DNA of 64,000 nt from a candidate division NPL-UPA2 bacterium Unc8 (GCA_003574845.1 NDHY01000002.1:80317-144316); one strand, 5' to 3'; shown: positions 427 through 26,757, counted from the first letter of the stretch. Notes: a model not told the origin generated them from the letters alone. Made by a program: numbers and translations.

Positions 427-1329
427 TCAACCAGCAAAGAGCTTTCGGGCTACTCTTTCATCTTTCATCAATTGCTTTTTCTCATCGCTGTGAGTGGCAA
501 ATTGCTGCCACCCTCTTATCCTGCGCAGAAAAAAAACTTTTATTTTACTATTATAGATGTCATCTTTAAAATCGAGGGCATGGACCTCCATTAATCCATT
601 TGCCATTCCAAGAATAGCAGGATGAAGCTGTTCTCCTACTTCCATCTGGGCAATGTAAGCTCCCTTTGCCGGTAAAATTTTCCTGCGGATTCTGATATTT
701 GCAGTAGGATAGCCGGTAGCCGCTGCTAATTTTTTCCCTTTTATAACCCTACCGGAAATGCTATATGGTCTACCCAAAAGCTCTCCCGCCTCCTTTACTT
801 TTCCATTTTTAATTAACAAACGTATCCGACTACTGGAAACTATTTCACCCCCCCGGCGAAGCGGTCTGATGCTATTGACCCTGAAGCCCAATTTTTTTCC
901 CATCTGTCGAAGAGTTGCCACATTCCCCTTTTTCCCCTCCCCAAAGAGATAGTTAGAGGCGACAAATATTTCGTTCACCTGAAGGCCACGAGAGAGAATG
1001 TGCAAAATAAAATCAGCAGGAGAAAGGCGGGCAAATCTCCTGTTGAAATTAATGACCATACATTTTTCAATCCCAAGACTGCCAAAGATAGATATTTTCT
1101 CATCCATTAAGGTAATAGGGTGCGGAGAGTTTTGTGGATTGATCAGGCTACATGGATGCGGATCAAAGGTAAGGACCATGCTTGTCCCGTCTATCTGACG
1201 GGCCCGTTCAATTACCATCTTAACAATCTTCTGGTGTCCCAGATGCACACCATCAAAAACACCAATGGCAAGGACTAAATTATTTCCCCTTCCTTCCTTT
1301 ATTCTTTTTAGCCCTTGAATGAGCTTCAT
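427..1329 (-). CDS. ribF: Bifunctional FAD synthetase / riboflavin kinase
   Basis: [23 protein letters not shown] and GYPTAN motifs; conserved truB-ribF-rpsO order. Confidence 0.93.
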
Positions 1330-2000
1330 TGGTATTTCCAGAGAAGTGCCTCAGGTTGAGAGGCTTGCCACAACTCATCAATAGTCAGCGAATCTTTGAT
1401 GTGAAATCGACCTGCTCTTATTCTGACCAGCTTTGCCTGATGTGCACCACAGCCAAGTACATCGCCCAGATCGGAACAGATGGTGCGAATATATGTCCCT
1501 TTCGAACAAACAATATTAAATCGCACTTCAGGGATTTTAATTTCTATAATTTTAAATGAGAAGATATTGATTTTTCTTGGCTTTCGCTGTACAACTTTAC
1601 CTTGCCTTGCCAGCTCATAGAGCCTCTTCCCATGGTAGCGAACTGCAGAAACCATAGGCGGAATTTGCTCCTGCTCTCCCTCAAATCTCCTGGTCACCTC
1701 TTTAATTTCTTCCTCAGTAACCTTAAGATTGTCTACCTTTTTTATAATAGTACCACTGGAATCCTGGGTATGAGTAGAGATACCTAAAATTAGCACACTC
1801 TCATATTCTTTTTCATCATTTGATAAAAACCGAACCATCTTCGTTGCTTTACCAAGACAGATAACAAGAACCCCGGTAGCATCAGGGTCAAGAGTGCCCG
1901 CATGCCCGACTTTTCTCATCTTAAATCGCTTTCTCACTTCAATGACGACATCATGGGAAGTTATTCCTGCCGGTTTATTAATGTTAAGAATTCCATCCAT
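1326..2000 (-). CDS. truB: tRNA pseudouridine-55 synthase (short form, no C-terminal PUA domain)
   Basis: GHAGTLDPDATGVL and CSKGTYIR motifs. Confidence 0.96.
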   Translation of the reverse strand: MDGILNINKPAGITSHDVVIEVRKRFKMRKVGHAGTLDPDATGVLVICLGKATKMVRFLSNDEKEYESVLILGISTHTQDSSGTIIKKVDNLKVTEEEIKEVTRRFEGEQEQIPPMVSAVRYHGKRLYELARQGKVVQRKPRKINIFSFKIIEIKIPEVRFNIVCSKGTYIRTICSDLGDVLGCGAHQAKLVRIRAGRFHIKDSLTIDELWQASQPEALLWKYQ

Positions 2001-2003
2001 CTC

Positions 2004-2348
2004 TCATCCCTGCTTGTTGATCTGTTTTAAGGCGTCCTCCACACGTGTTCCCTTCTCAATAGAATTATCAATCTTAAAGGTAAGCTTTGGCAAATAACGG
2101 AGATGTAGCTTTTTCCCGATCTTTCTTCTAATGTAATTACTCCCATCGCGAAGCCCGTATATGGTCTCATCTTTTACCTTTTCTTCTAAATAGGTACTGA
2201 CAAAAATAGTGGCACACCGCAGGTCACTACTTACTTCCACAGCAGTAATTGTTACAAACCCAATTCGCGAATCAACTACTTTTTCCTCAAGAACCCTGGA
2301 GACCTCCTCCTTTATCACCGCAGCAACCCGCTCTGTCCTTCTTGACAT
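2004..2348 (-). CDS. rbfA: Ribosome-binding factor A
   Basis: RTERVA...VTITAVEVSSDL...LRYLPKLTF..DNSIE; position after infB. Confidence 0.95.
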   Translation of the reverse strand: MSRRTERVAAVIKEEVSRVLEEKVVDSRIGFVTITAVEVSSDLRCATIFVSTYLEEKVKDETIYGLRDGSNYIRRKIGKKLHLRYLPKLTFKIDNSIEKGTRVEDALKQINKQG

Positions 2349-2372
2349 TCAGTCGTTTCACTCCATTTGTAA

Positions 2373-2410
2373 CAGTTCACAGGGGTCAGGGAACTGATCC
2401 CCGCGAACTG
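2373..2410 (-). repeat. 17-bp intergenic hairpin between infB and rbfA
   Basis: cagttcacaggggtcag-ggaa-ctgatccccgcgaactg; pairs best on the mRNA (minus) strand using G-U wobble. Confidence 0.7.
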
Positions 2411-2411
2411 C

Positions 2412-4151
2412 TTATCGGAGCCTTCTTACACTTTCTTCCATATGATATGCTTCAACAATATCCCCATCTGCAAGATTTTCTATGCCAGAAATTCCAATGC
2501 CGCATTCATAATCAGATTCTACTTCCCTGACATCTTCTTTGAAACGTTTTAAGGAATTAATACCTCCCTCACCTATAGACTTGCCATTCCGCAGCAGAGT
2601 AATTTTTGAGCCCCTTACAATCTTTCCACTAATAACATAGGAGCCGGCTATCTGACCGCTTCGTGAGCTCTGAAATATCTGGCGCACCTCAGCTCTGCCA
2701 AGAATTACTCGCCTATAAACAGGCTCAAGAAGTCCTTCCAGTGCACTCTTGATATCTGATATCACCTCATAGATAATGTCATAAAAGTACAAACTAACGC
2801 CTTCCTTATCAGCCAATTCTCTTGCTCCCACCTGTGCCTTTACATGGAATCCAACAATAATAGCACCTGACGCTATAGCCAGCATAACATCAGATTCGCT
2901 TATTATGCCAACTCCGGCATGAATAACCTTTAGCTTTACATTATCAGTGCTTAATTGTTCAAGTGAATGTTGCAGCGCCTCTACGGAGCCATTCACATCC
3001 CCCTTAATAATAATTGGAAATTCTTTTATCTTTCCTTCACTAATCTGCTGGTAAAGCTCATTTAGGGTAATCTTTTTCATACCCCTACCCTTCTTCTTCT
3101 CCTCCACAAATCTTCGCTGAGAGACAACCTCCTTAATCTTTTTCTCATTGCTGACAACATGGAAGGAATCTCCTGGAGCAGGAAGCTCAATAAAGCCCAA
3201 AACCTCAACCGGCGTGGACGGAGCAGCTTCCTTCAAATTTACACCTTGGTCATCTATCAGTGCCCTTACTTTTCCACCACAAAAACCACAGATAAAATCA
3301 TTTCCAACCCTGAGTGTTCCATCTTTAACAAGAAGAGTGGCCACCGGCCCCCTTCCTTTGTCCAGCCTTGCTTCTACAATTACTCCATTTGCCAAACGAA
3401 CTGGATTTGCCCGCAGTTCCAGCATCTCAGCTTCAAGAAAAAGAGCATCTAAAAGATGATCAATTCCTATTTTTTCAATTGCGGAAACTTCAATACAGAT
3501 AACCTTGCCACCCAACTCCTCAACGAGGATATCATGCTTCATTAACTCCCTTTTCACTCGTAAGGGATTGGCATCAGGCTTATCAGTCTTGTTAATTGCC
3601 ACAATAACAGGAACATTAGCAGCACGAGAATGATTTATTGCTTCCACCGTCTGCGGCATAACTCCATCGTCAGCAGCAACAACTAAGACAACAATATCTG
3701 TAATCTGTGCTCCACGAGCACGCATGGCGGTGAACGCCTCATGGCCAGGAGTATCAATGAATGCAATCTCCCCGGCGGGTAGCTTAATCTTATAGGCACC
3801 AATATGCTGAGTGATACTTCCTGCCTCTGACCGAACAACCCACGTATGTCGGATTGCGTCAAGAAGCGTTGTTTTTCCATGATCAACATGCCCCATAACA
3901 GTTACTATGGGAGCACGTATGGTGAGCGAAGATTCATCATCGTCAGAAAGCACCTTTGCTTTATAAACAAGTGATTTTCTCTCTTCTTTTTCTTTCTCAG
4001 TAATAGATTCGGAAATAATTTCAGCATCAGTCTCATCCAGAGCACTGATTGAGCTTTTTTTCCCTACGCCCATCTCCTCAAGCTTAGTTATTATTTTTTT
4101 GCTATCCACGCCAAGCTTCTTCGCCAGCTCATATATCCTTATTCTTGCCAT
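2412..4151 (-). CDS. infB: Translation initiation factor IF-2 (compact, 579 aa)
   Basis: [24 protein letters not shown] and [12 protein letters not shown] motifs. Confidence 0.98.
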
Positions 4152-18179: not shown

Positions 18180-18407
18180 TTAATCCCTTTCTTCTTCTAC
18201 CATAAAAACTGGGTAATCATCAAGAGGATGTTCATTTTCTTTCGGCTTAAATTTCCTTTTAGGACTTATCGCTACTTCTTTTATAGGAGTTGCTTTTAAT
18301 CTATTAAGATTTTTTAGTATCTCTAAATACTCCGGCTGATAATACTCAGCATCCAGCCGATGCGTACCTTCAAGTTGGGATTTTTGGATAATGGAATAGG
18401 TAATCAT
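18180..18407 (-). pseudogene. N-terminal remnant of an R-M specificity (S) subunit fused to a short methylase-derived tail
   Basis: MITYSIIQKSQLEG..RLDAEYYQPEYL start; ends in ENEHPLDDYPVFM, a copy of the methylase segment at 19301-19340. Confidence 0.7.
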
Positions 18408-18799
18408 TATTTTCCTCTAAAATCTTTTTTTATAAAATTAATCAGTCCTTTAACATTTTTGAGGTTTTCTTTAATTTCTTCTAATGATATTTCTGTTTCG
18501 CCGAAAGGATATTTCTCTTCAAAATAATATTCAGTTATCATATCTAACAAGTCATAGTAATTATTAAATATTGGATTATGTTTTACCGCTTCATCAAGAA
18601 GTTCTTTTAAGTCATGTGTTTTTACAAGCTTCCACCCCTTGCTTATTAAATATCCTTTAAGATATTTTTCAATACCTTGCTGTAACAATACGCCTGCTAC
18701 ATCGGGATGTCCGGAGCCTTTTAAAATATCATTTACAGCGTCAAAATCATGGTCTGCCTTTTCAAACCATTCTTTCGCCCTTATCTTATTATTCTCCAT
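18407..18799 (-). CDS. HEPN domain protein
   Basis: W.EKA..D, QQGIEKYLK and KTHDL motifs; overlaps the upstream MNT gene. Confidence 0.9.
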   Translation of the reverse strand: MENNKIRAKEWFEKADHDFDAVNDILKGSGHPDVAGVLLQQGIEKYLKGYLISKGWKLVKTHDLKELLDEAVKHNPIFNNYYDLLDMITEYYFEEKYPFGETEISLEEIKENLKNVKGLINFIKKDFRGK

Positions 18800-19118
18800 A
18801 TAAAACTTCTCCTTTTTCCAATATTTCTTTTATAAAATCGTCCTCTATTTTTAATCTTTTATGAAGTTCGTCTTTTGTAAAGACCACTGGTTGAACTGAC
18901 ATGCCTCTTATATCTCTAATTATTTTTCGGACTTCACAGAATCTATCTATTCTTCTTTTATTTGATTCTTTAATAATAAACAAATCTATATCGCTACCCT
19001 CGGTGGGTTCTCCATAAGCATAAGAACCAAATAAAATAATCTTCTCTGGTCTGTATTCGGTTTTAATCTTTTCTACTATTCTTAGAAGTATCCTTCTGGC
19101 CCTTTCATCTCTGCTCAT
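18789..19118 (-). CDS. Minimal nucleotidyltransferase (MNT)
   Basis: ILFGSYAYG....SDIDLFII motif. Confidence 0.92.
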   Translation of the reverse strand: MSRDERARRILLRIVEKIKTEYRPEKIILFGSYAYGEPTEGSDIDLFIIKESNKRRIDRFCEVRKIIRDIRGMSVQPVVFTKDELHKRLKIEDDFIKEILEKGEVLYGE

Positions 19119-19136
19119 TTATCTCACCTCCACCAT

Positions 19137-19370
19137 TCAAGCCCTTCTTATCTTGACAAACTTCACAAACCCTTCGGCAATTTCATCAAGGTCGTGTTCA
19201 AGGACAGGGCGTCCTTTTTCATCCAAAAGTTTATTTCCGAATCTATCTTTTTTATAGATATACTCACCGGAATTATCCTTGCCTGGTTTTTTACTTACTG
19301 CCATAAAAATTGGGTAATCATCAAGAAGCTGTTCATTTTCCTGCCATTTTTGTAAAAATTAGAACCGCTC
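19137..19370 (-). pseudogene. C-terminal remnant of an N6-adenine DNA methylase (HsdM/Type IIG-like)
   Basis: Manual translation LQKWQENEQLLDDYPIFMAVSKKPGKDNSGEYIYKKD...VLEHDLDEIAEGF; no start codon; abuts the res stop. Confidence 0.72.
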
Positions 19371-19372
19371 TT

Positions 19373-22300
19373 TTATCTTTCGCTAAATAATCTTTCAGGC
19401 CAATCTTCATCATCTAAAAATAATATATGATGTTCTTCTATATATTTATCTTTTGAAAGAGGCTCTGTTCCTCTTTCTATCAATTTCTCGTACGGGGTTT
19501 TGGAAAGTATAAAAGATTCCAATGCTACATTATCCTTACCAAGTTTTTGTTCTAATTGCTTAATGTCATCTTTAAGTTTTATTTTCTCATCGTCCAATCC
19601 TTTTGTGTGCTCTAACCCCTTAGGGTCGATGAAGATCATATTCTGCTTTTTACCGTTCTTAATCCACATAATAAAATCAGGATAGAATCCACTTAGACTG
19701 AAGAATCCTACTCCTGATCTTGGATAATTTCTTAAAAGATACACCTCAACACCAGAAAATTTATCCGTGTTCTTTTTCAAATAATCTCGTAGGCCTGTAA
19801 CAAATTCCTTCTCGCTATCTACAAGACCAGCAGGGGATATCTTATCTATTTCCTTACTTTGAAGAAGTACCGGTACATAGAGATGTTTATCAAAATAAAA
19901 CCGCGGCAGAGTTTTGGTATCTTCTTTAAGTAGTTTATTTAAATCTCTTGCCAGTATATTTATCTCTTTGATTAGTTCTTTTTTTCTTTTATCTATCTGC
20001 ACTGTGTAGCTATATCCACCTTCTGGTTTTTCAAAAACAAAAAGGGGCAACTGTTTTCCGACAGTATCATAATATAAGTTTTCCGTCTCAAAGCGCTTTG
20101 CATATTTTCTATAAAATAAATCCAGATATTTTTTGATAACCAAAAGCGCTATATCTTCCACCCGTCGGACATCATCCTCGCTTTTGACCTCCAGAGTCTC
20201 AGGAAGTGCCATAATTTTATACCTATCTGATAAAAGTAAGTTTTTTAGTACAGCTCTATCCAGAACCAAATTCCAGTATCCTTTTACAATTTTGAAATCA
20301 TAAATTTCCTGCCATATCCTTTCCCAATCAAGCAAATCTACAATATCTTCTGTGATTCTCAATCCCTCAACCTCTGCTCTTATCTGGTCTATTTTAATCC
20401 CCTCTTCTTTTCTCTCCTTTGTCAGACCTGCCTGTGCCCTGGCAGACAGGTATATTGACACCTTTGGCAGAAGGTCTAATGTGAAATGAATCCTATCATC
20501 AATCTCTAACCTTCGAATTTCTTCTTCTTCAAACTTCTTACTCTCATTTTTAGAAAGAGTATAAAGAGTCTTCCATTTTTTCTCATGTTGAGGTTTAATA
20601 GGTATTCCAATAGCCTCAAACTCCACTTCCTCTTTTCTGATTGACTCTAAAAACTTGCTTAAATAGTCAGCCTTGATCCCATAAATATTGAGCATCTCTA
20701 AGAATTGAACTTGGGTTTTCTCTTCGCTTCTTTTAAGGGACATCCCTTTACCTTTCAGTCGGACTCCTCTCCCAAATAACTGAATAATCTGAGGCCCCTG
20801 ACCTCTACCAATATTCAAAAGTCCCATAGAAGAGACCCGCCATGTATCCCAGCCTTCAATAAATTTCTTTGAGCCAATAAGAACACTTATTTTGGAACTC
20901 TCTTTTTTTATTACATCAAAAAGGGAATCTGATACAGCATCCTGAGCTACAGATATTCCTTTTTTCTCTAATTGCTTTTTAAAACCTGATACATCACCGA
21001 TATTTATCACTCCAAAATATTCATTTTCTCCAATCTTTAACCCCAACTCTCCCTCAGCATTTTTTAACCCATATATACCAAAACTTCCTTTTCCTCCAAA
21101 AACTCTTTTGTATAAGTCCCCAAAATCAATGCCTCGCTTCTTTAGATACTCAAATTTGCCAGAAAATACATCTTTATCATCTTCATCTTTCAGTTTTGTA
21201 TTGCCATCCAAAATATTTTTTACCCACTTCTTAACCCAGTCTTCATTCTGGATTACTCTTTTTATAAACCCCACAATCTGAATAACATCGGATTCCTCTT
21301 CTTTTCCAGTAACCGTTGTCCCAACAAAAATCCAGAGAGGTTTTTCAAGGTTATGTTCTAATGCTTTCTTTTTGTTCTCTTCAAAGGTGAGAGTCTGCTC
21401 ATAAAAAGATAGGAGATTTGCTACAAACATTATTTCCGAAAATTCCTGCTCACTGATTCTTGCCTGCTTTACATTTAAAACAGAGAAGTCCTTGCCATAT
21501 CCGTCTAAATAGAAGTATTTATAGGAATAATCAAACAGAATTGATTTGGCATATTCTTCAAGTGTCTCTTTATTTCTTTCGCTTAAAATCTGCCCAAATG
21601 TTGCACTGTATTCAAATACAAAACCGTTTTTCGCAAGTTTATTTCTAAGTCTTGCCCATTTTTGTTCTTCTGACCTCTTGCCTTTATGACCTTCATCCAC
21701 AAAAACAAGATTTCTTCCCTCAAACACATCAACTGATAGAGTAACCCCCCCACCCTTTTTCTCTTCCACAAATTTTGTCATCTCTATTACCAAAACTTCA
21801 CGCTCGTTAGTTATTGTTCCAAGACCGCTCAAACTACCTGTATAAAGCCTGCAAGGAATTCCACTTTTTTGCAATTCCTCAAAGTGCTGTCTTGAAAGTC
21901 CTTCATTGGGAGTAATTAAAATAATATTGTCAGGAGAGAATAAATTGTAATGGAAGAATTGATAGTAGCTTATATGGGTAATCAGTGTCTTCCCGGAGCC
22001 CGTTGCCATCCAGAAGGCAAGTTTTCTTAAATCATTTTCGGTAAATGAATCTATAAGTTTAATGTTTTCTTCTTGCTTGTAGTTTTTCAAGAACTCATTC
22101 AGCTCATACAAAAACTCAAATTTTCTATTCTTCAGGTTATCAAGGGCAATCTCTACGGAAAGCACAGCCAGATACTGGAAATACTTTAGAGTTACAGGCT
22201 CACGCTTGTAGTTTATTTTCTTTACATAGGATTGAATATTTTCATCGTATCTGAGGAGTGTGTCTTCTGGAAGTCTAAGCTTCTCAAAAGATGACCGCAG

Positions 22301-22444
22301 GACATTTACAAAATAACTTCTCCCATCGCTATTATCAACGCCAACTCGTGCATCTTTTAATTTCTCCTGCAAATCTCTGAAATCACTCACTCCAAAGAGA
22401 GAAAGTAAATATTTGTTTAGCACAAGGTATTTTTCTATATTCAT
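19373..22444 (-). CDS. res: Type III restriction endonuclease subunit (SF2 helicase + PD-(D/E)xK nuclease)
   Basis: MATGSGKT, VDEGH, YSATF, EGWD, QLFGRGVR, FYPDF...IDPKG. Confidence 0.93.
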   Translation of the reverse strand: MNIEKYLVLNKYLLSLFGVSDFRDLQEKLKDARVGVDNSDGRSYFVNVLRSSFEKLRLPEDTLLRYDENIQSYVKKINYKREPVTLKYFQYLAVLSVEIALDNLKNRKFEFLYELNEFLKNYKQEENIKLIDSFTENDLRKLAFWMATGSGKTLITHISYYQFFHYNLFSPDNIILITPNEGLSRQHFEELQKSGIPCRLYTGSLSGLGTITNEREVLVIEMTKFVEEKKGGGVTLSVDVFEGRNLVFVDEGHKGKRSEEQKWARLRNKLAKNGFVFEYSATFGQILSERNKETLEEYAKSILFDYSYKYFYLDGYGKDFSVLNVKQARISEQEFSEIMFVANLLSFYEQTLTFEENKKKALEHNLEKPLWIFVGTTVTGKEEESDVIQIVGFIKRVIQNEDWVKKWVKNILDGNTKLKDEDDKDVFSGKFEYLKKRGIDFGDLYKRVFGGKGSFGIYGLKNAEGELGLKIGENEYFGVINIGDVSGFKKQLEKKGISVAQDAVSDSLFDVIKKESSKISVLIGSKKFIEGWDTWRVSSMGLLNIGRGQGPQIIQLFGRGVRLKGKGMSLKRSEEKTQVQFLEMLNIYGIKADYLSKFLESIRKEEVEFEAIGIPIKPQHEKKWKTLYTLSKNESKKFEEEEIRRLEIDDRIHFTLDLLPKVSIYLSARAQAGLTKERKEEGIKIDQIRAEVEGLRITEDIVDLLDWERIWQEIYDFKIVKGYWNLVLDRAVLKNLLLSDRYKIMALPETLEVKSEDDVRRVEDIALLVIKKYLDLFYRKYAKRFETENLYYDTVGKQLPLFVFEKPEGGYSYTVQIDKRKKELIKEINILARDLNKLLKEDTKTLPRFYFDKHLYVPVLLQSKEIDKISPAGLVDSEKEFVTGLRDYLKKNTDKFSGVEVYLLRNYPRSGVGFFSLSGFYPDFIMWIKNGKKQNMIFIDPKGLEHTKGLDDEKIKLKDDIKQLEQKLGKDNVALESFILSKTPYEKLIERGTEPLSKDKYIEEHHILFLDDEDWPERLFSER
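20427..20450. repeat. Palindromic element (CCTGCC family) inserted in frame in res
   Basis: cctgcctgtgcc-ct-ggcagacagg, 24 bp; within peptide LSARAQAG. Confidence 0.8.
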
Positions 22445-22446
22445 GG

Positions 22447-25400
22447 TTATCCCATTAAATTTTTAAATTCCGGCTCAACATAACGAATTTCTGCTGTGTG
22501 CTTGCCGAGTTTCGGAGTCAAGACACTTTGCCCATTTATATAGACAATATGTGGCGCCCAGGGTTCAAGTTCCTGAATAATAAACTCTTTATCCTTCTTG
22601 AAATCATCTTCATTCCAATTATCATTGTATTCTCTCCAGGCAATAGCTATCTCTTTTCCCTCTTTTTCACCAAGAATAAATAAATATTTTCTCTTAGATC
22701 CCTCTCCCCTTGCGGGAGAGGGTAAGGGTGAGGGGGTCTCTCTTGCCTTTATCTTTTTAACCTTCAATCCCAGAAGATAATTAAATGTCTCCGGTACATC
22801 CACAATCATCTCCTGCGGTTCACCAACTTCTTCAAGATTGACTTTAAGTTTGTAAGAGAAGGGATTTTTAAGTTTTTCAATGTTTAAGAGGCTGGGATTT
22901 CCCCTGCCTGTGCCGTGCCCGCCACGGCAGACAGGTCTTGTTTCGCAATCCAAAAAGTATTTCAAAAGATAATCATCACCAAATTTCAATTCCGCCTGTC
23001 TGTTTGAGGTAAGTTCAATGTTGTCTAAAGTGTCTTCGTATTGTTCTAAAATTTGGTATTTGAAGAATTGACTGATGCCGTCTGTATCTTGTGGTGTGCC
23101 TTCTTTCCAGTTGAAAGAGTAACAAACTTTCTTGAGTCTTGGAATGATAACTGTATCAAAATAATCTGCCATTTCCACAAGAATATATTTTCTCTTACCA
23201 CCATCTTCTTTATTAAGTTTCATAACGGCGTCGGCAGTGGTGCCTGAGCCAGCAAAATAATCAAGAATAAAGGATTCATTGGATGCACCTATTTTTATTA
23301 CATGTTTTATTAGTGAAACAGGTTTTGGATAAGATGTAAAAACAGCATCTCCAAAAAAATTTTCTATTTCTTTCGTTCCAATCTCATTTGTAAAATCTAA
23401 CAATAAAGTTCTATATGGGTTTTCTCTTTTTGTCGGGTTTAACTCATTGTCAACGAATTGATATTGTTTAAAATATACAGTCCACCTTTTATTTTGTTTT
23501 TTAAATACTATTAAATGATTTTTGATTCCCCATTCTACTTTTTCTTTAGACCATCTCCATGTCCATCTTTTATCAAGAGGGTCTCCACCTGGCCATATTT
23601 CAATATCTTCCTGTAAATCATATTCTATGATTTTACTTCTGATCATTAAGTCAATTTTAGAACCCTTTTTCAACTCAATTGAATAGTCAAGACTTTCTGA
23701 ATAGTGGATGCTCCCTCTATCTAACTTGTTTAACTTAAATTTCCCTCGCTGGGTAATAAACTCATCTTGAAATGGGTAATCTTCTAATTCAGCCAACTGT
23801 TTATTTATAGATGCTTTTTCAAAATTTTTAGCCAAACATAAAACATAATCATGCTCAGTAGCGATGAACTTTACATCCATTCTGGGAGCAACTCCACTTT
23901 TCCTTATAAAACATGAAATAAAGTATAATGAATTCCAAATAGACATTTTTTTAAACTCTTCAATTTCATTATCATCAATACTCACAAAAATCACTCCATC
24001 TTCCCTCATTAATTTCCTTGCTAACTGCAACCTATTCTCCATCATACTAAGCCAGCTGGAATGCTGATACCTATCTCTATACAAAAACTCATCGTTCCCT
24101 GTGTTATATGGCGGATCAATATAAATACACTTGACTTTCTCTTTATACTTCTCTAAAAGCAAGTTCAATGCCTGAAAGTTTTCGCTTTTAATAAGTATGC
24201 CATCCAAAAGGTCGTCGAGAGGGATTGCTTCGTCGCTACCGCTCCTCGCAATGACAGGAGAGGAGGTAAGTTTCTCGAGGAGTTTTTCTTTGAATTCCTG
24301 GCTGAAGTATTTTGTATCAATCGGTAAATGAAGGTTTTTTAGAGATTGCTTCGTCACTTCGTTCCTCGCAATGACGAATCCTAATTCTTTCCATTCTTTT
24401 AGTTGCTCTTTGCTCTTTAAAATCTCATCATAAAACTCTTCCGGTATTCGGTCTGTGGTTATTACATACTCGGTCTTTAATACAAACTTCTTTTTCTCCC
24501 ATAACCTCTTCTGGAAGTCCTCGATCTGGGAGAGAAAATCAATGAGAGACTCTCCGATCTCCCGCACCACCTTGGCACGGGTGATGTGTTTATCTAAAAA
24601 TCTTTCCTTTTCCAGTGTCTCGAGAGATAAAACCTCGGCTTTGATAAAGTAGTCCAATTGTTCGGCGAGGAATTTCTTAAGGTTTTTATGGATGAAATAA
24701 TCCTTTGTGTTTTTGGCTGTGAATCTTGAAATCTGATAAAGAAGAAGGGGTCTTTCATTTTTATATTCCTTGCTCAAAAATGATTTTAATTCAATACCCT
24801 CAATTTTCTTTAGAACTTCATCATAAATCTTCTGGTTAATTTTCTCCTGCTTTGAAGTGTTGCTACCGCCTTCCACGCCGTAACTTTTTACCTCTTCCTC
24901 GGTGAGTTCTCTATACTGAAAGCGGATGATTAAGTTCTTATTATCCCCCTCACCCTTACCCTCTCCCACAAGGGGAGAGAGAATTATTTCTACCGGATTT
25001 TCATCATCCAGAATAAAAAATCTTGCCTTTGTAGCTTTCTTTGCCCCTAATTCTTCTCTAACTGAAACGATACGGAAAATAACTTTATACTCATTGGCTT
25101 CAAATGTGTAATCCCGAAAAAGAAGACCAGTTTTTGTGTAATACTGCTCATTATTTGCCCAATAAAGTTTTACTTCTTCGCCGTTATAAGGAATGGCATA
25201 TTTATGCCCTTTTATGGAGTAGCGGTAATGGGGAGCAAAATCGCCTTCTTCGTAGTATCGAGAGAAGAAATTATAGAGGTCGTTGAAAACCTGTAATTTG
25301 ATTTCGTCAATAGCTTGCGCCTCATCTCTTTGTGCTTTTACTGAAAGAAAATCTCTGCCAAGAGGTGTATCCTTGAACTCTTCTTTAAGCTCTCCGGTAG

Positions 25401-25656
25401 GGGTAAAAGACTTTGTTCCTAAAGCTTGAACGACCTTCTCTTTTGCCTCTTCAAATCTCCGATTTATGTCGGTTAGTCTTTCACCTTTATGTTTAGCAAA
25501 GGCAGATTCAACCTTATTTTTAAGATCTTCTTGAATAAATTTCTCAACCCTATCTCGTTTGTAGTTCAGAACACGATAAATCCCGAAATCCAAATCGGAA
25601 GCTTCAAACTGAAAAAGCCTTTTAAGTAAATTCTGAAATTTTTGAATGGTATCCAT
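22447..25656 (-). CDS. mod: Type III R-M methyltransferase subunit
   Basis: CIYIDPPYNTG, YPKP and LDYFAGSGTT (beta-class motif order); directly upstream of res. Confidence 0.94.
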   Translation of the reverse strand: MDTIQKFQNLLKRLFQFEASDLDFGIYRVLNYKRDRVEKFIQEDLKNKVESAFAKHKGERLTDINRRFEEAKEKVVQALGTKSFTPTGELKEEFKDTPLGRDFLSVKAQRDEAQAIDEIKLQVFNDLYNFFSRYYEEGDFAPHYRYSIKGHKYAIPYNGEEVKLYWANNEQYYTKTGLLFRDYTFEANEYKVIFRIVSVREELGAKKATKARFFILDDENPVEIILSPLVGEGKGEGDNKNLIIRFQYRELTEEEVKSYGVEGGSNTSKQEKINQKIYDEVLKKIEGIELKSFLSKEYKNERPLLLYQISRFTAKNTKDYFIHKNLKKFLAEQLDYFIKAEVLSLETLEKERFLDKHITRAKVVREIGESLIDFLSQIEDFQKRLWEKKKFVLKTEYVITTDRIPEEFYDEILKSKEQLKEWKELGFVIARNEVTKQSLKNLHLPIDTKYFSQEFKEKLLEKLTSSPVIARSGSDEAIPLDDLLDGILIKSENFQALNLLLEKYKEKVKCIYIDPPYNTGNDEFLYRDRYQHSSWLSMMENRLQLARKLMREDGVIFVSIDDNEIEEFKKMSIWNSLYFISCFIRKSGVAPRMDVKFIATEHDYVLCLAKNFEKASINKQLAELEDYPFQDEFITQRGKFKLNKLDRGSIHYSESLDYSIELKKGSKIDLMIRSKIIEYDLQEDIEIWPGGDPLDKRWTWRWSKEKVEWGIKNHLIVFKKQNKRWTVYFKQYQFVDNELNPTKRENPYRTLLLDFTNEIGTKEIENFFGDAVFTSYPKPVSLIKHVIKIGASNESFILDYFAGSGTTADAVMKLNKEDGGKRKYILVEMADYFDTVIIPRLKKVCYSFNWKEGTPQDTDGISQFFKYQILEQYEDTLDNIELTSNRQAELKFGDDYLLKYFLDCETRPVCRGGHGTGRGNPSLLNIEKLKNPFSYKLKVNLEEVGEPQEMIVDVPETFNYLLGLKVKKIKARETPSPLPSPARGEGSKRKYLFILGEKEGKEIAIAWREYNDNWNEDDFKKDKEFIIQELEPWAPHIVYINGQSVLTPKLGKHTAEIRYVEPEFKNLMG
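22702..22736. repeat. Palindromic element (CCCTCTCCC family) in frame in mod, copy A
   Basis: ctctccccttgcgggagagggtaagggtgaggggg; encodes PSPLPSPARGE. Confidence 0.85.
22903..22935. repeat. Palindromic element (CCTGCC family) in frame in mod
   Basis: cctgcctgtgcc-gtgcccgccac-ggcagacagg, 33 bp; encodes PVCRGGHGTGR; same arms as 20427-20450. Confidence 0.85.
24223..24255. repeat. CGTC-type palindromic element in frame in mod
   Basis: gattgcttcgtc-gctaccgct-cctcgcaatgac; encodes VIARSGSDEAI. Confidence 0.85.
24344..24375. repeat. CGTC-type palindromic element in frame in mod
   Basis: gattgcttcgtc-acttcgtt-cctcgcaatgac; encodes VIARNEVTKQS. Confidence 0.85.
24945..24979. repeat. Palindromic element (CCCTCTCCC family) in frame in mod, copy B, inverted relative to copy A
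   Basis: ccccctcacccttaccctctcccacaaggggagag; encodes SPLVGEGKGEG. Confidence 0.85.
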
Positions 25657-25707
25657 AGTTACCTCACTTATTTACTTTTTTATCTTTCCTCCCTGCAGAA
25701 TTGTTCT

Positions 25708-25815
25708 TCATTTCTCCTCCCATACTAAACCATACTTCTTGCGCTTCTTTAATCGCTTGATTTCTTTAATCAAATCTTCTTTTCTCCAGTTTTGATAATC
25801 TCTATTTTTAGGCAT
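25708..25815 (-). pseudogene. N-terminal stub (35 aa) of a different Type III Mod-like methylase
   Basis: MPKNRDYQNWRKEDLIKEIKRLKKRKKYGLVWEEK*; KKYGLVWE resembles Mod N-termini; start overlaps the HEPN stop. Confidence 0.65.
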
Positions 25816-26212
25816 AAATAATATTTCTGATTTTGGTTAATACGTTCTTTACAAATTCTGTAAACTCACCGCACTCTTTTTCTGTAACCTCAACTCCACC
25901 TGCATAGAAATCAAGATTTCTCTTTGAACGCATAATATTTCCCATTGTCATAATAGAATCGTCTTTAAGAATCTGAGCGATTTTCTCGATTATTTTAAAA
26001 TGGTGGCCGGGAACGCTTTTTATTTTTACTTGATAAAAACTTAGTAAGGCAATACCCGCCTTAATGAAGTCGGTATAAACATAATTGAATTTTACCTCTA
26101 AGAATTTGTCTTCCTCAGCAATGTTTAGATCTTTCAGCGCATTTTTAAAATTGTTGTTGATCTGTTCTTTGGTAAATTCGAGTTTGCTAAAATACCTTTC
26201 GTCAAACTTCAT
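25808..26212 (-). CDS. HEPN-like protein
   Basis: Helical protein with PGHH and R.KRN...Y motifs; coupled to the upstream MNT gene. Confidence 0.75.
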   Translation of the reverse strand: MKFDERYFSKLEFTKEQINNNFKNALKDLNIAEEDKFLEVKFNYVYTDFIKAGIALLSFYQVKIKSVPGHHFKIIEKIAQILKDDSIMTMGNIMRSKRNLDFYAGGVEVTEKECGEFTEFVKNVLTKIRNIIYA

Positions 26213-26757
26213 AAGTTTATTCTAATGTGTTTATTTTTTAAAATCCCTGTTATGAATGGATCCTTATTTTTAATTTTTCTCTTGAATTCCTTTTCACCAA
26301 TATCAACGACATTTATTTCTCTATTAATTTCCTTCTGTAGTTTATTAAGTTTTTTCTGAAGTGAAATAATACTATGGCCACCTACAACTATTAAATCAAT
26401 ATCACTGTGAGTATCCATTTTATTTTTAGCATATGAGCCGTAAATATAAACCTCTCTTATTGCCTTAACATCCTTTAGGGCGTTCCTTATACCCTCCTCA
26501 AATCCAATTGTTTTGATGACTATTCTTCTATACTCGTTGTATAGAGGATAATCTCTATTTATAGGATAGAGTTTAAGATTTCCTCTAACCTGACTTTTTA
26601 GAATTCCTTCTCTCTCTAATTCCTTTATTTTCTTAACGAGGTTTCTCTTATCAAGGGCAAGATTTCTCGATAATTCGTTTATATAGAGACTCTCTTTCGG
26701 ATTAAGAAAGAAATAATTTAACAGTTTCCTTGTTATCTCAGATTTCAAAGAAATCAT
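26209..26757 (-). CDS. wHTH-nucleotidyltransferase (MNT) antitoxin-like protein
   Basis: N-terminal HTH (LYINELSR...LEREGIL), then YIYGSYA....HSDIDLIVVG. Confidence 0.85.
   Translation of the reverse strand: MISLKSEITRKLLNYFFLNPKESLYINELSRNLALDKRNLVKKIKELEREGILKSQVRGNLKLYPINRDYPLYNEYRRIVIKTIGFEEGIRNALKDVKAIREVYIYGSYAKNKMDTHSDIDLIVVGGHSIISLQKKLNKLQKEINREINVVDIGEKEFKRKIKNKDPFITGILKNKHIRINL

Follow-up and report, generated by a model that had tools for sequence, protein, structure and literature searches.

In-frame copies of three short GC-rich repeat families in a type III restriction-modification gene pair of the candidate division NPL-UPA2 bacterium Unc8

How do six short GC-rich elements come to lie, in frame, within the two genes of a restriction-modification (R-M) system? 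The question is raised by a stretch of 64,000 nucleotides (nt) from the candidate division NPL-UPA2 bacterium Unc8 (GCA_003574845.1, NDHY01000002.1:80317-144316; G000:C12:80317-144316 in our numbering), hereafter the window, which belongs to a genome of 996 kb that is 94.7% complete. The window contains adjacent, co-oriented genes for a methyltransferase (Mod) and a restriction subunit (Res) that abut at 22444/22447. Judged by their domain matches, these two proteins make up a Type III R-M system, with Mod a beta-class N6/N4 methyltransferase and Res a superfamily 2 (SF2) helicase-nuclease (Table 1). The Mod gene has a GC content of 0.36 compared to 0.59-0.76 for the elements. The reading we prefer, at a probability of roughly 0.7, is that the elements are selfish hairpin repeats, partly linked to a nuclease, which survive in permissive loops of a promiscuous and dispensable R-M gene and work like Rickettsia palindromic elements (RPEs).

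Six in-frame elements in Mod and Res

A preliminary description of the window had reported six palindromic elements from three families in the two genes, and all six were found where it placed them. Exact pattern searches of the window returned two matches for each of families 1, 2 and 3, with none expected from 100 dinucleotide shuffles; the family 2 pattern matched at 22714-22734 (-) and 24947-24967 (+). Both open reading frames (ORFs) stay open, and the translations contain the peptides already quoted for families 1 and 2 (VIARSGSDEAI, VIARNEVTKQS, PSPLPSPARGE and SPLVGEGKGEG) together with PVCRGGHGTGRG and SARAQAGLT. F2b is 97% identical to F2a over 35 nt, and F1a is 94% identical over 34 nt to an intergenic copy on another contig of the genome (C24:12193). 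An ORF and Pfam survey found no nuclease between the six units in the window, all six being solo. An intein or a self-splicing intron was rejected, as inserts of 24-36 nt are too short for either, and a search of Rfam returned nothing in 19000-26000 at E up to 1.

The term palindromic applied to some of the elements and not to others. When folded as single-stranded DNA and compared to shuffles, F2a (z -2.4), F3a (z -3.5; -10.9 kcal/mol) and F1b (z -2.8) folded clearly better, F2b was borderline (z -1.7, with 10 of 200 shuffles matching it), and F1a (z +0.5) and F3b (z -1.2) were unremarkable. The hairpin part of the family 2 triplex motif, folded alone, gave -9.7 kcal/mol (z -2.4). Family 3 is, by its predicted pairing, a CCTGCCTG...CAGGCAGG hairpin. 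Each family 1 unit resembles one arm of the larger inverted dimers that occur between genes.

The Mod inserts occupy loops. They were mapped, as had been proposed, on a predicted structure made with AlphaFold2 from a 26-row alignment, a weak model (mean predicted local distance difference test score, pLDDT, 60; predicted template modelling score, pTM, 0.35) that was used only to separate coil from helix or strand. DSSP assigned coil at all five Mod inserts. Sites A, C, D and E lie in, overlap or adjoin stretches with pLDDT <50, and site B (428-438) is coil within a block of pLDDT 56-65. All Mod inserts fall outside the DPPY..FAGSG stretch, as first described.

Table 1. Genes and repeat units of the R-M locus (coordinates are those of the window).
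Feature	Coordinates	Strand	Reading, site or evidence
Mod, type III R-M methyltransferase, 1069 aa	22447..25656	(-)	ORF; PF01555 E 2.7e-28; PADLOC MTase_III PDLC03646 E 1.3e-145; hosts five elements
Res, type III R-M restriction subunit, 1023 aa	19373..22444	(-)	ORF; PF04851 E 3e-14; PADLOC REase_III PDLC03654 E 1.3e-156; hosts one element
Family 1 unit a (F1a), 33 nt, GATTGC..GCAATGAC	24223..24255		read as PVIARSGSDEAI; Mod loop site C, residues ~465-477
Family 1 unit b (F1b), 32 nt	24344..24375		read as VIARNEVTKQS; Mod loop site B, residues ~428-438
Family 2 unit a (F2a), CCCTCTCCC-CTTGC-GGGAGAGGG-TAA-GGGTGAGGG-G	22700..22736		read as PSPLPSPARGEG; Mod loop site E, residues ~973-987
Family 2 unit b (F2b), orientation opposite to F2a	24945..24980		read as LSPLVGEGKGEG; Mod loop site A, residues ~226-238
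Family 3 unit a (F3a), 33-nt hairpin CCTGCCTGTGCC..GGCAGACAGG	22903..22935		read as PVCRGGHGTGR; Mod loop site D, residues ~908-919
Family 3 unit b (F3b), 24 nt	20427..20450		read as SARAQAGL; in Res, after residue 668

Filled and empty sites among alleles

The elements have discrete ends: compared to most homologues, each is a precise indel of 24-36 nt. Every Mod peptide was a clean indel against 25 Mod homologues, and the Res peptide was an indel of 8 amino acids (aa) carried by 6 of 120 Res homologues, which bears out the expectation of clean indels for most homologues. Homologue DNA from 80 public loci gave the same picture at nucleotide resolution. At site A, loci L014 and L020 differ by an exact 36-nt family 2 unit, and at site D the window differs from both L013 and L015 by an exact 33-nt family 3 indel. 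One loop may hold different families: at site E, after one shared AGA codon, L013 and L015 have a family 1 unit but the window has a family 2 unit. At site B, homologue P0046 shares NEVTKQSLK with the window and other homologues hold single or double family 1 units.

Presence and absence also differ among near-identical alleles in public metagenomes, of which four runs (X1-X4) were compared as contigs rather than reads, so that rare variants and the direction of change are invisible. A window-like locus was recovered in a 4.9-kb contig of X1 (6 differences) and a 3.7-kb contig of X2 (0 differences), together spanning 20309-25204. Contigs of about 90-95% identical alleles were found without four of the six elements. 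A contig of X4 (record 22, ~93-95% alike) runs across sites E and D but has neither F2a nor F3a; 9 nt replace F2a, giving the 'NNG' form of the empty homologues, and F3a is gone with a net change of -33 nt. A contig of X2 (record 8, ~88% alike) bridges the same two sites, also without F2a and F3a. Elsewhere in X4, a contig without F2b jumps from 24934 to 24989 with 18 nt between (net -36 nt), and a contig without F1a jumps from 24216 to 24267 with 17 nt between (net -33 nt). The X2 record 8 contig (window 21509-24134) is also of interest as a second R-M allele in the same run as the window's allele, and its central (target-recognition) region differs.

Many contigs in the four runs aligned to the F1a unit alone and broke exactly at 24223 and 24256, and summed depth over this unit was 900-3100 compared to 12-40 nearby. 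Run X3, with short, low-depth contigs over parts of the stretch, was used solely for this family 1 depth peak. Loose contig ends were also present around F1b, at 24341-2 and 24375-6.

These data bear on whether the elements are insertions in the first place, rather than chimeric joins made in assembly, GC-rich codons that converged, or linkers of low complexity inherited from an ancestor. In favour of such an origin, the genome was binned from a metagenome and contig ends carry family 1 units. However, the same nucleotide units recur with 85-97% identity between genes and in unrelated genes, they are cleanly absent from most homologues, and the same sites are filled in independent assemblies (P0046, P0007, L014 and the X1 and X2 contigs described above). 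An origin other than insertion is hardly credible on this evidence.

Distribution across the genome and the Mod family

When GC-rich hairpins and repeated k-mers were censused de novo, GC-rich coding stretches and intergenic heptamer arrays dominated and the result was too noisy, therefore a family-based census alone was used. Many intergenic gaps across the genome hold arrays of 7-8-nt units (GTGCCTCT, GAAGGCT, CAGGGTT and similar). Family 1 has its two copies in Mod and approximately six other loci, intergenic or at contig ends (C24, C17, C18), and it probably breaks the assembly, because two contigs start or end in family 1. It is arranged as inverted dimers and, in one array, as five units repeating every 20 bp (C24:12193-12340; C24:1-60; C17:1-210 and 1575-1605). 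Family 2 has three copies, two in Mod and a third that forms the translated C-terminus, and 3' end, of the only DUF559 gene. Family 3 has five full copies, all in-frame in ORFs: Mod, Res, carB (C1:158409-158451), valS (C19:64543-64576) and an MsbA-like ABC exporter (C18:65907-65941). The carB unit lies in the linker ahead of the second ATP-grasp half; carB and valS are essential housekeeping genes. The arms of family 3 also occur in a 19-nt intergenic palindrome.

The R-M pair therefore holds 6 of 9 in-frame copies. It represents 0.72% of coding DNA in a rough set of 848 ORFs, giving a binomial P of ~1e-11 against a uniform spread over coding DNA, in line with the concentration that the preliminary description had anticipated genome-wide. 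Its statement that housekeeping ORFs lack such inserts stood within the window and failed in the genome, where carB, valS and the ABC exporter carry family 3. Defence genes are thus not the sole hosts, yet they are enriched.

Mod homologues occur in many bacterial and archaeal phyla at 35-78% identity. The family is mosaic, with many homologues matching residues 1-563 only, at 70-78% identity (tblastn). Six loops (A, X299, B, C, D and E) were scored in the 120 nearest Mod homologues, a loop counting as filled when at least 5 aa longer than the median. At least one loop was filled in 66 of the 120, with 35 filled at site A, 26 at X299, 15 at B, 20 at C, 2 at D and 42 at E. Nine peptide classes, set post hoc after the data had been seen, accommodated 104 of the 140 filled loops, and the unclassed loops include natural AT-rich linkers. 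Several classes share a loop, with seven at site A and five at site E. Res had fewer inserts than Mod in the homologue comparison. Changes were counted on a FastTree phylogeny of the N-terminal module with insert columns removed, in which recombination and tree error inflate the counts: family 2 at site A took 12 changes for 23 carriers (21 in shuffles), and family 1 at site B took 8 changes for 8 carriers. Two other ways of counting inserts were abandoned. A composition-only (GARP-rich) classifier gave 22 for Mod, 10 for Res and 5 for carB and was too strict, losing most family 1 and 2 peptides, and a raw count of rare inserts came out too high owing to columns that vary naturally.

As a control we used carB, which has the same length as Mod, with its 120 nearest homologues at 69-100% identity. 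Repeat-like inserts, read by eye, were present in approximately 15 of the 120; six of these were near-identical to the query and nearly all lay in one linker. Mod thus appears, by this comparison of sequences, to be decorated several times more often than carB and at more sites. Insertion is not restricted to defence genes, given the other hosts in this genome and the inserts among carB homologues, and the targeted insertion first suggested is not supported by these data.

Chloroflexi Mod homologues with 35-37% identity to the Unc8 protein have, at sites A and E, a family 2 variant of their own that is GC-rich. Targeting of a DNA sequence appears unlikely, because at this distance no target can be conserved in the DNA, yet the corresponding loops are filled. 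The presence of host-specific variants in these loops therefore favours selection on permissive loops over targeted insertion. A composite transposon formed from the inverted family 2 units at A and E was rejected, as Chloroflexus L056 has both units in the same orientation. Hairpin cores numbered 92, 10, 5, 1 and 0 in other host genomes, the 92 being those of the Chloroflexi genome. The L014 genome has the Mod copy alone, and L019 has a degenerate copy in a genome without another. Two homologues from Chloroflexota / Anaerolineae, L075 and L047, carry at sites B and E in-frame tandem copies of a different repeat, read LTQSHKDTEDNLGVSVSPCE, which consists of octamer palindromes of CACAAAGACACAGAG / GGTGTCTCCGTGTCTCC type.

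A further explanation is that the repeats are retained because they act on the R-M genes at the level of DNA or RNA, as recombination hot spots for module swapping, as pause or attenuation hairpins that tune a toxic enzyme, or as sites where instability switches the system off. Raised local variability at TMECO/BoxC loci among E. coli strains (Holder et al., 2015, PMC4666352), the mosaic structure of the Mod family and the differences in presence and absence among near-identical alleles are consistent with such a role. Yet the inserts lie at residues ~226, 430, 466, 908 and 973, with none at the module boundary near 563, unrelated families occupy one loop, copies decay where the genome lacks the family, most homologues manage without the repeats, and the repeats are present in housekeeping genes as well. 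We consider a retained role of this kind improbable.

A nucleotidyltransferase gene stands on each side of the R-M pair, and a HEPN gene is paired with one of the two; these genes together look like a small defence island. The HEPN and nucleotidyltransferase pair lies on one side and the second nucleotidyltransferase on the other (window 18407-19118 and 25808-26757); the second has an upstream 134-aa partner without a Pfam match.

Known repeat families, DUF559 nucleases and the origin of the elements

Family 2 is identified by its sequence as the BoxC/PIT/TMECO 'triplex motif' repeat, whose consensus consists of a 9-nt C-rich stem, a 3-6 nt loop, GGGNGAGGG, a 3-nt loop and GGGNGAGGG (Holder et al., 2015, PMC4666352). 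F2a fits this consensus and F2b does likewise with one stem mismatch, one being allowed. The C18 copy, at the end of the DUF559 gene, has the 'type A' TTA loop, and inverted pairs, as in PMC4666352, flank a DUF559 cassette in locus L084. BoxC/PIT/TMECO is described there as an intergenic repeat of Proteobacteria and Cyanobacteria with no assigned function; the copies here differ in belonging to a candidate phylum, in being translated within genes and in standing at the end of a DUF559 gene. Many dispersed intergenic copies of BoxC type were not found in this genome, none of its three family 2 copies being intergenic. DUF559 has 0 occurrences in the main text of PMC4666352.

Family 1 resembles, at the sequence level, a unit of the repetitive extragenic palindrome (REP) type with a GTCATT...AATC frame. 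REPs with a CGTC or GTAG tag at one end are stem-loops of 20-40 bp, and REPs are found inside genes, many of them replication and repair genes (Di Nocera et al., 2013, PMC3733652). F1b starts with CGTC on the coding strand and folds well, whereas F1a starts with TGTC and its fold is no better than shuffles. In-frame REPs and RPEs are already in print, RPEs being mentioned in PMC3733652; R-M genes are not named as hosts of 'REP-decorated' type in the passages of that paper compared here. The GTCATT...AATC frame is also shared with the hairpins of the Ssn GIY-YIG single-strand nucleases, whose genes are flanked by the recognised NTS/SRM hairpin and which have hundreds of solo copies of it (Chenal et al., 2025, PMC11893778). 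Family 1 differs in lying off the search pattern (HGTCWY N0-2 YYVSBRH N0-5 WNVSBRG N0-2 RNCYNB), which neither of its two units matches, and in having no GIY-YIG neighbour. The genome has 7 matches to the SRM pattern, including 4 canonical hairpins, compared to 2-5 in mononucleotide shuffles, and one canonical hairpin stands just upstream of a small GIY-YIG gene. No GIY-YIG gene adjoins family 1, as PF01541 matched only at C1:71988-72209 and in an open frame of 448 aa on C19, presumably UvrC. The small GIY-YIG gene (C1:71942-72310) has one in-frame TGA and is preceded by a canonical Ssn-type hairpin, GTCATTCCCCGG..CCGGGGAATC, and followed by a palindrome, GATTGTCCGA..TCGGACAATGAC.

RPEs, which Ogata et al. 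reportedly described in 2000, are short selfish palindromes lying in-frame in protein genes. They are ~100-150 nt long and are not known outside Rickettsia. The elements of Unc8 are like them in being in-frame, in leaving the host ORF open, in their placement in loops and in the presence of several families per genome, a likeness of working that implies no relation in sequence. They differ in their size of 24-36 nt, in the recurrence of the same families across phyla, in the sharing of the loops of one horizontally mobile R-M family by many repeat families, and in the tie of one family to a nuclease gene. A second comparison is the ShiLan-type element, an out-of-frame HNH homing-type gene in an actinophage DNA methylase (Arsenault et al., 2025, PMC11855218). 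It is likewise a nuclease element in a DNA methyltransferase gene, read through without stops and predicted to loop out, and differs from the present case, where the repeats are solo and relatives have in-frame DUF559 domains between hairpins.

DUF559 is linked to family 2 in two settings. The genome's only DUF559 gene (C18:87452-87835; PF04480, E 3.4e-40; 127-134 aa) has a frame that runs through the family 2 unit at its 3' end. A different CCTCCC..GGGAGG hairpin is located at its 5' end (C18:87440-87880), and it is preceded by a 475-aa ORF that we take to be lysyl-tRNA synthetase. In L084, from the same genus, a DUF559 domain (residues 423-525) is in-frame within an HsdM methyltransferase and is flanked by two inverted family 2-type units, which therefore ties family 2 to DUF559 with an R-M gene involved again. 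Among Mod homologues, whole DUF559 domains occupy the sites of two Unc8 peptides, as the preliminary description had foreseen: the SPLVGEGKGEG site (A) in P0035 and P0047, and the PSPLPSPARGE site (E) in L027 (PF04480, E 8e-30). Each of these three domains lies between inverted hairpins of 'SPSLKG/TPLKEG' type. Literature searches returned no paper that describes DUF559 cassettes or places repeats of this kind in R-M genes.

Solo units could therefore be footprints or landing pads of repeat-flanked nuclease cassettes (DUF559, GIY-YIG), with R-M proteins gaining and losing nuclease domains at these loops. Sites A and E are both family 2 sites in Unc8, solo 'TPSANADTPLKEG' units at site E (P0036, P0046) correspond to the 3' end of the L027 cassette, and the L084 gene and the genome's own DUF559 gene, with their family 2-type units, fit this explanation. 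However, among the 120 homologues the domain was present in only 2 of 35 filled site A loops and in 0 of 42 filled site E loops, to which the one cassette of locus L027 is to be added, and the cassettes of the Mod homologues are flanked by the TPLKEG-type repeat, a different class from family 2. In the present data no cassette version of family 1 or 3 was seen, nor is it evident how a cassette could be deleted from between inverted repeats so that exactly one intact unit stays behind. Cassette scars are possible for family 2, and as a general account of the solo units this explanation is rather unlikely. The related proposal of a domain-shuffling system found no support: the module boundary near residue 563 is distant from every insert, and the solo units enclose no nuclease.

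We therefore return to selfish repeats tolerated in permissive loops. The six elements would be solo copies of three short, dispersed GC-rich families of hairpin type, selfish both in the genome and in the microbial community. Each would have arrived as a separate unit of 24-36 nt whose length is divisible by three and which has no stop in the frame used, and would be translated in a surface loop of Mod or Res as 8-13 residues rich in Gly, Pro, Ser, Ala and Arg. Within genes, survival would be limited to the coincidence of frame, absence of stops and a permissive loop, and the peptides themselves may be functionally neutral. Three properties could account for the pile-up in the R-M pair: its proteins offer a handful of permissive loops, its genes are dispensable and presumably under weaker constraint than housekeeping genes, and the Mod/Res family crosses phyla and recombines, and so may sample many genomes and collect inserts. 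Family 2 at least would belong to the same element system as the small DUF559 (Vsr-fold) cassettes, which have repeat ends and use the same loops. How copies are made is a guess; a nuclease-induced break or recognition of a single-strand hairpin, followed by repair-copying without target duplication, may be involved.

Several points weigh against this reading. Neither a target-site duplication nor a common target motif was seen in the comparison of filled and empty sites, and no insertion, excision or enzyme activity was directly observed. The alleles recombine, so that gain and loss cannot be distinguished. The carB control was not taxon-matched and was picked because of its insert, and the structure model is poor. 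The enrichment of in-frame copies in the R-M pair is stronger than tolerance alone obviously predicts, just three family 2 copies in the genome is odd for an active repeat, and families 1 and 3 are left without an identified partner, because family 1 fails the SRM pattern and has no adjacent GIY-YIG gene.

A broader and more tentative version, less probable than selfish repeats in permissive loops, would unite hairpin repeats and small nucleases (DUF559 for the BoxC/TM units, perhaps others for families 1 and 3) as one homing-like system that would copy a hairpin into DNA, either alone or together with the nuclease ORF. Its favoured vehicles would be promiscuous R-M genes, with elements in Mod, Res or HsdM loops riding across phyla and seeding genomes. 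If true, this would explain near-identical 30-nt repeats from Proteobacteria to candidate phyla, and why two of the three family 2 copies are in Mod and the third on a nuclease gene.

BoxC/PIT/TM repeats, like many REP-like hairpins, were described decades ago, yet to our knowledge no function and no agent that moves them has been established. The Unc8 locus and its relatives provide filled and empty sites that form a natural series resolved to the single nucleotide, in which several repeat families compete for the same protein loops and DUF559 is a candidate partner enzyme using those loops. The question of what moves the repeats, and whether R-M genes spread them, becomes testable from this material. 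In the annotation of uncultured bacteria, selfish DNA that is translated can account for odd Gly/Pro/Arg-rich loops in R-M and housekeeping proteins, which are then not features of the protein itself.

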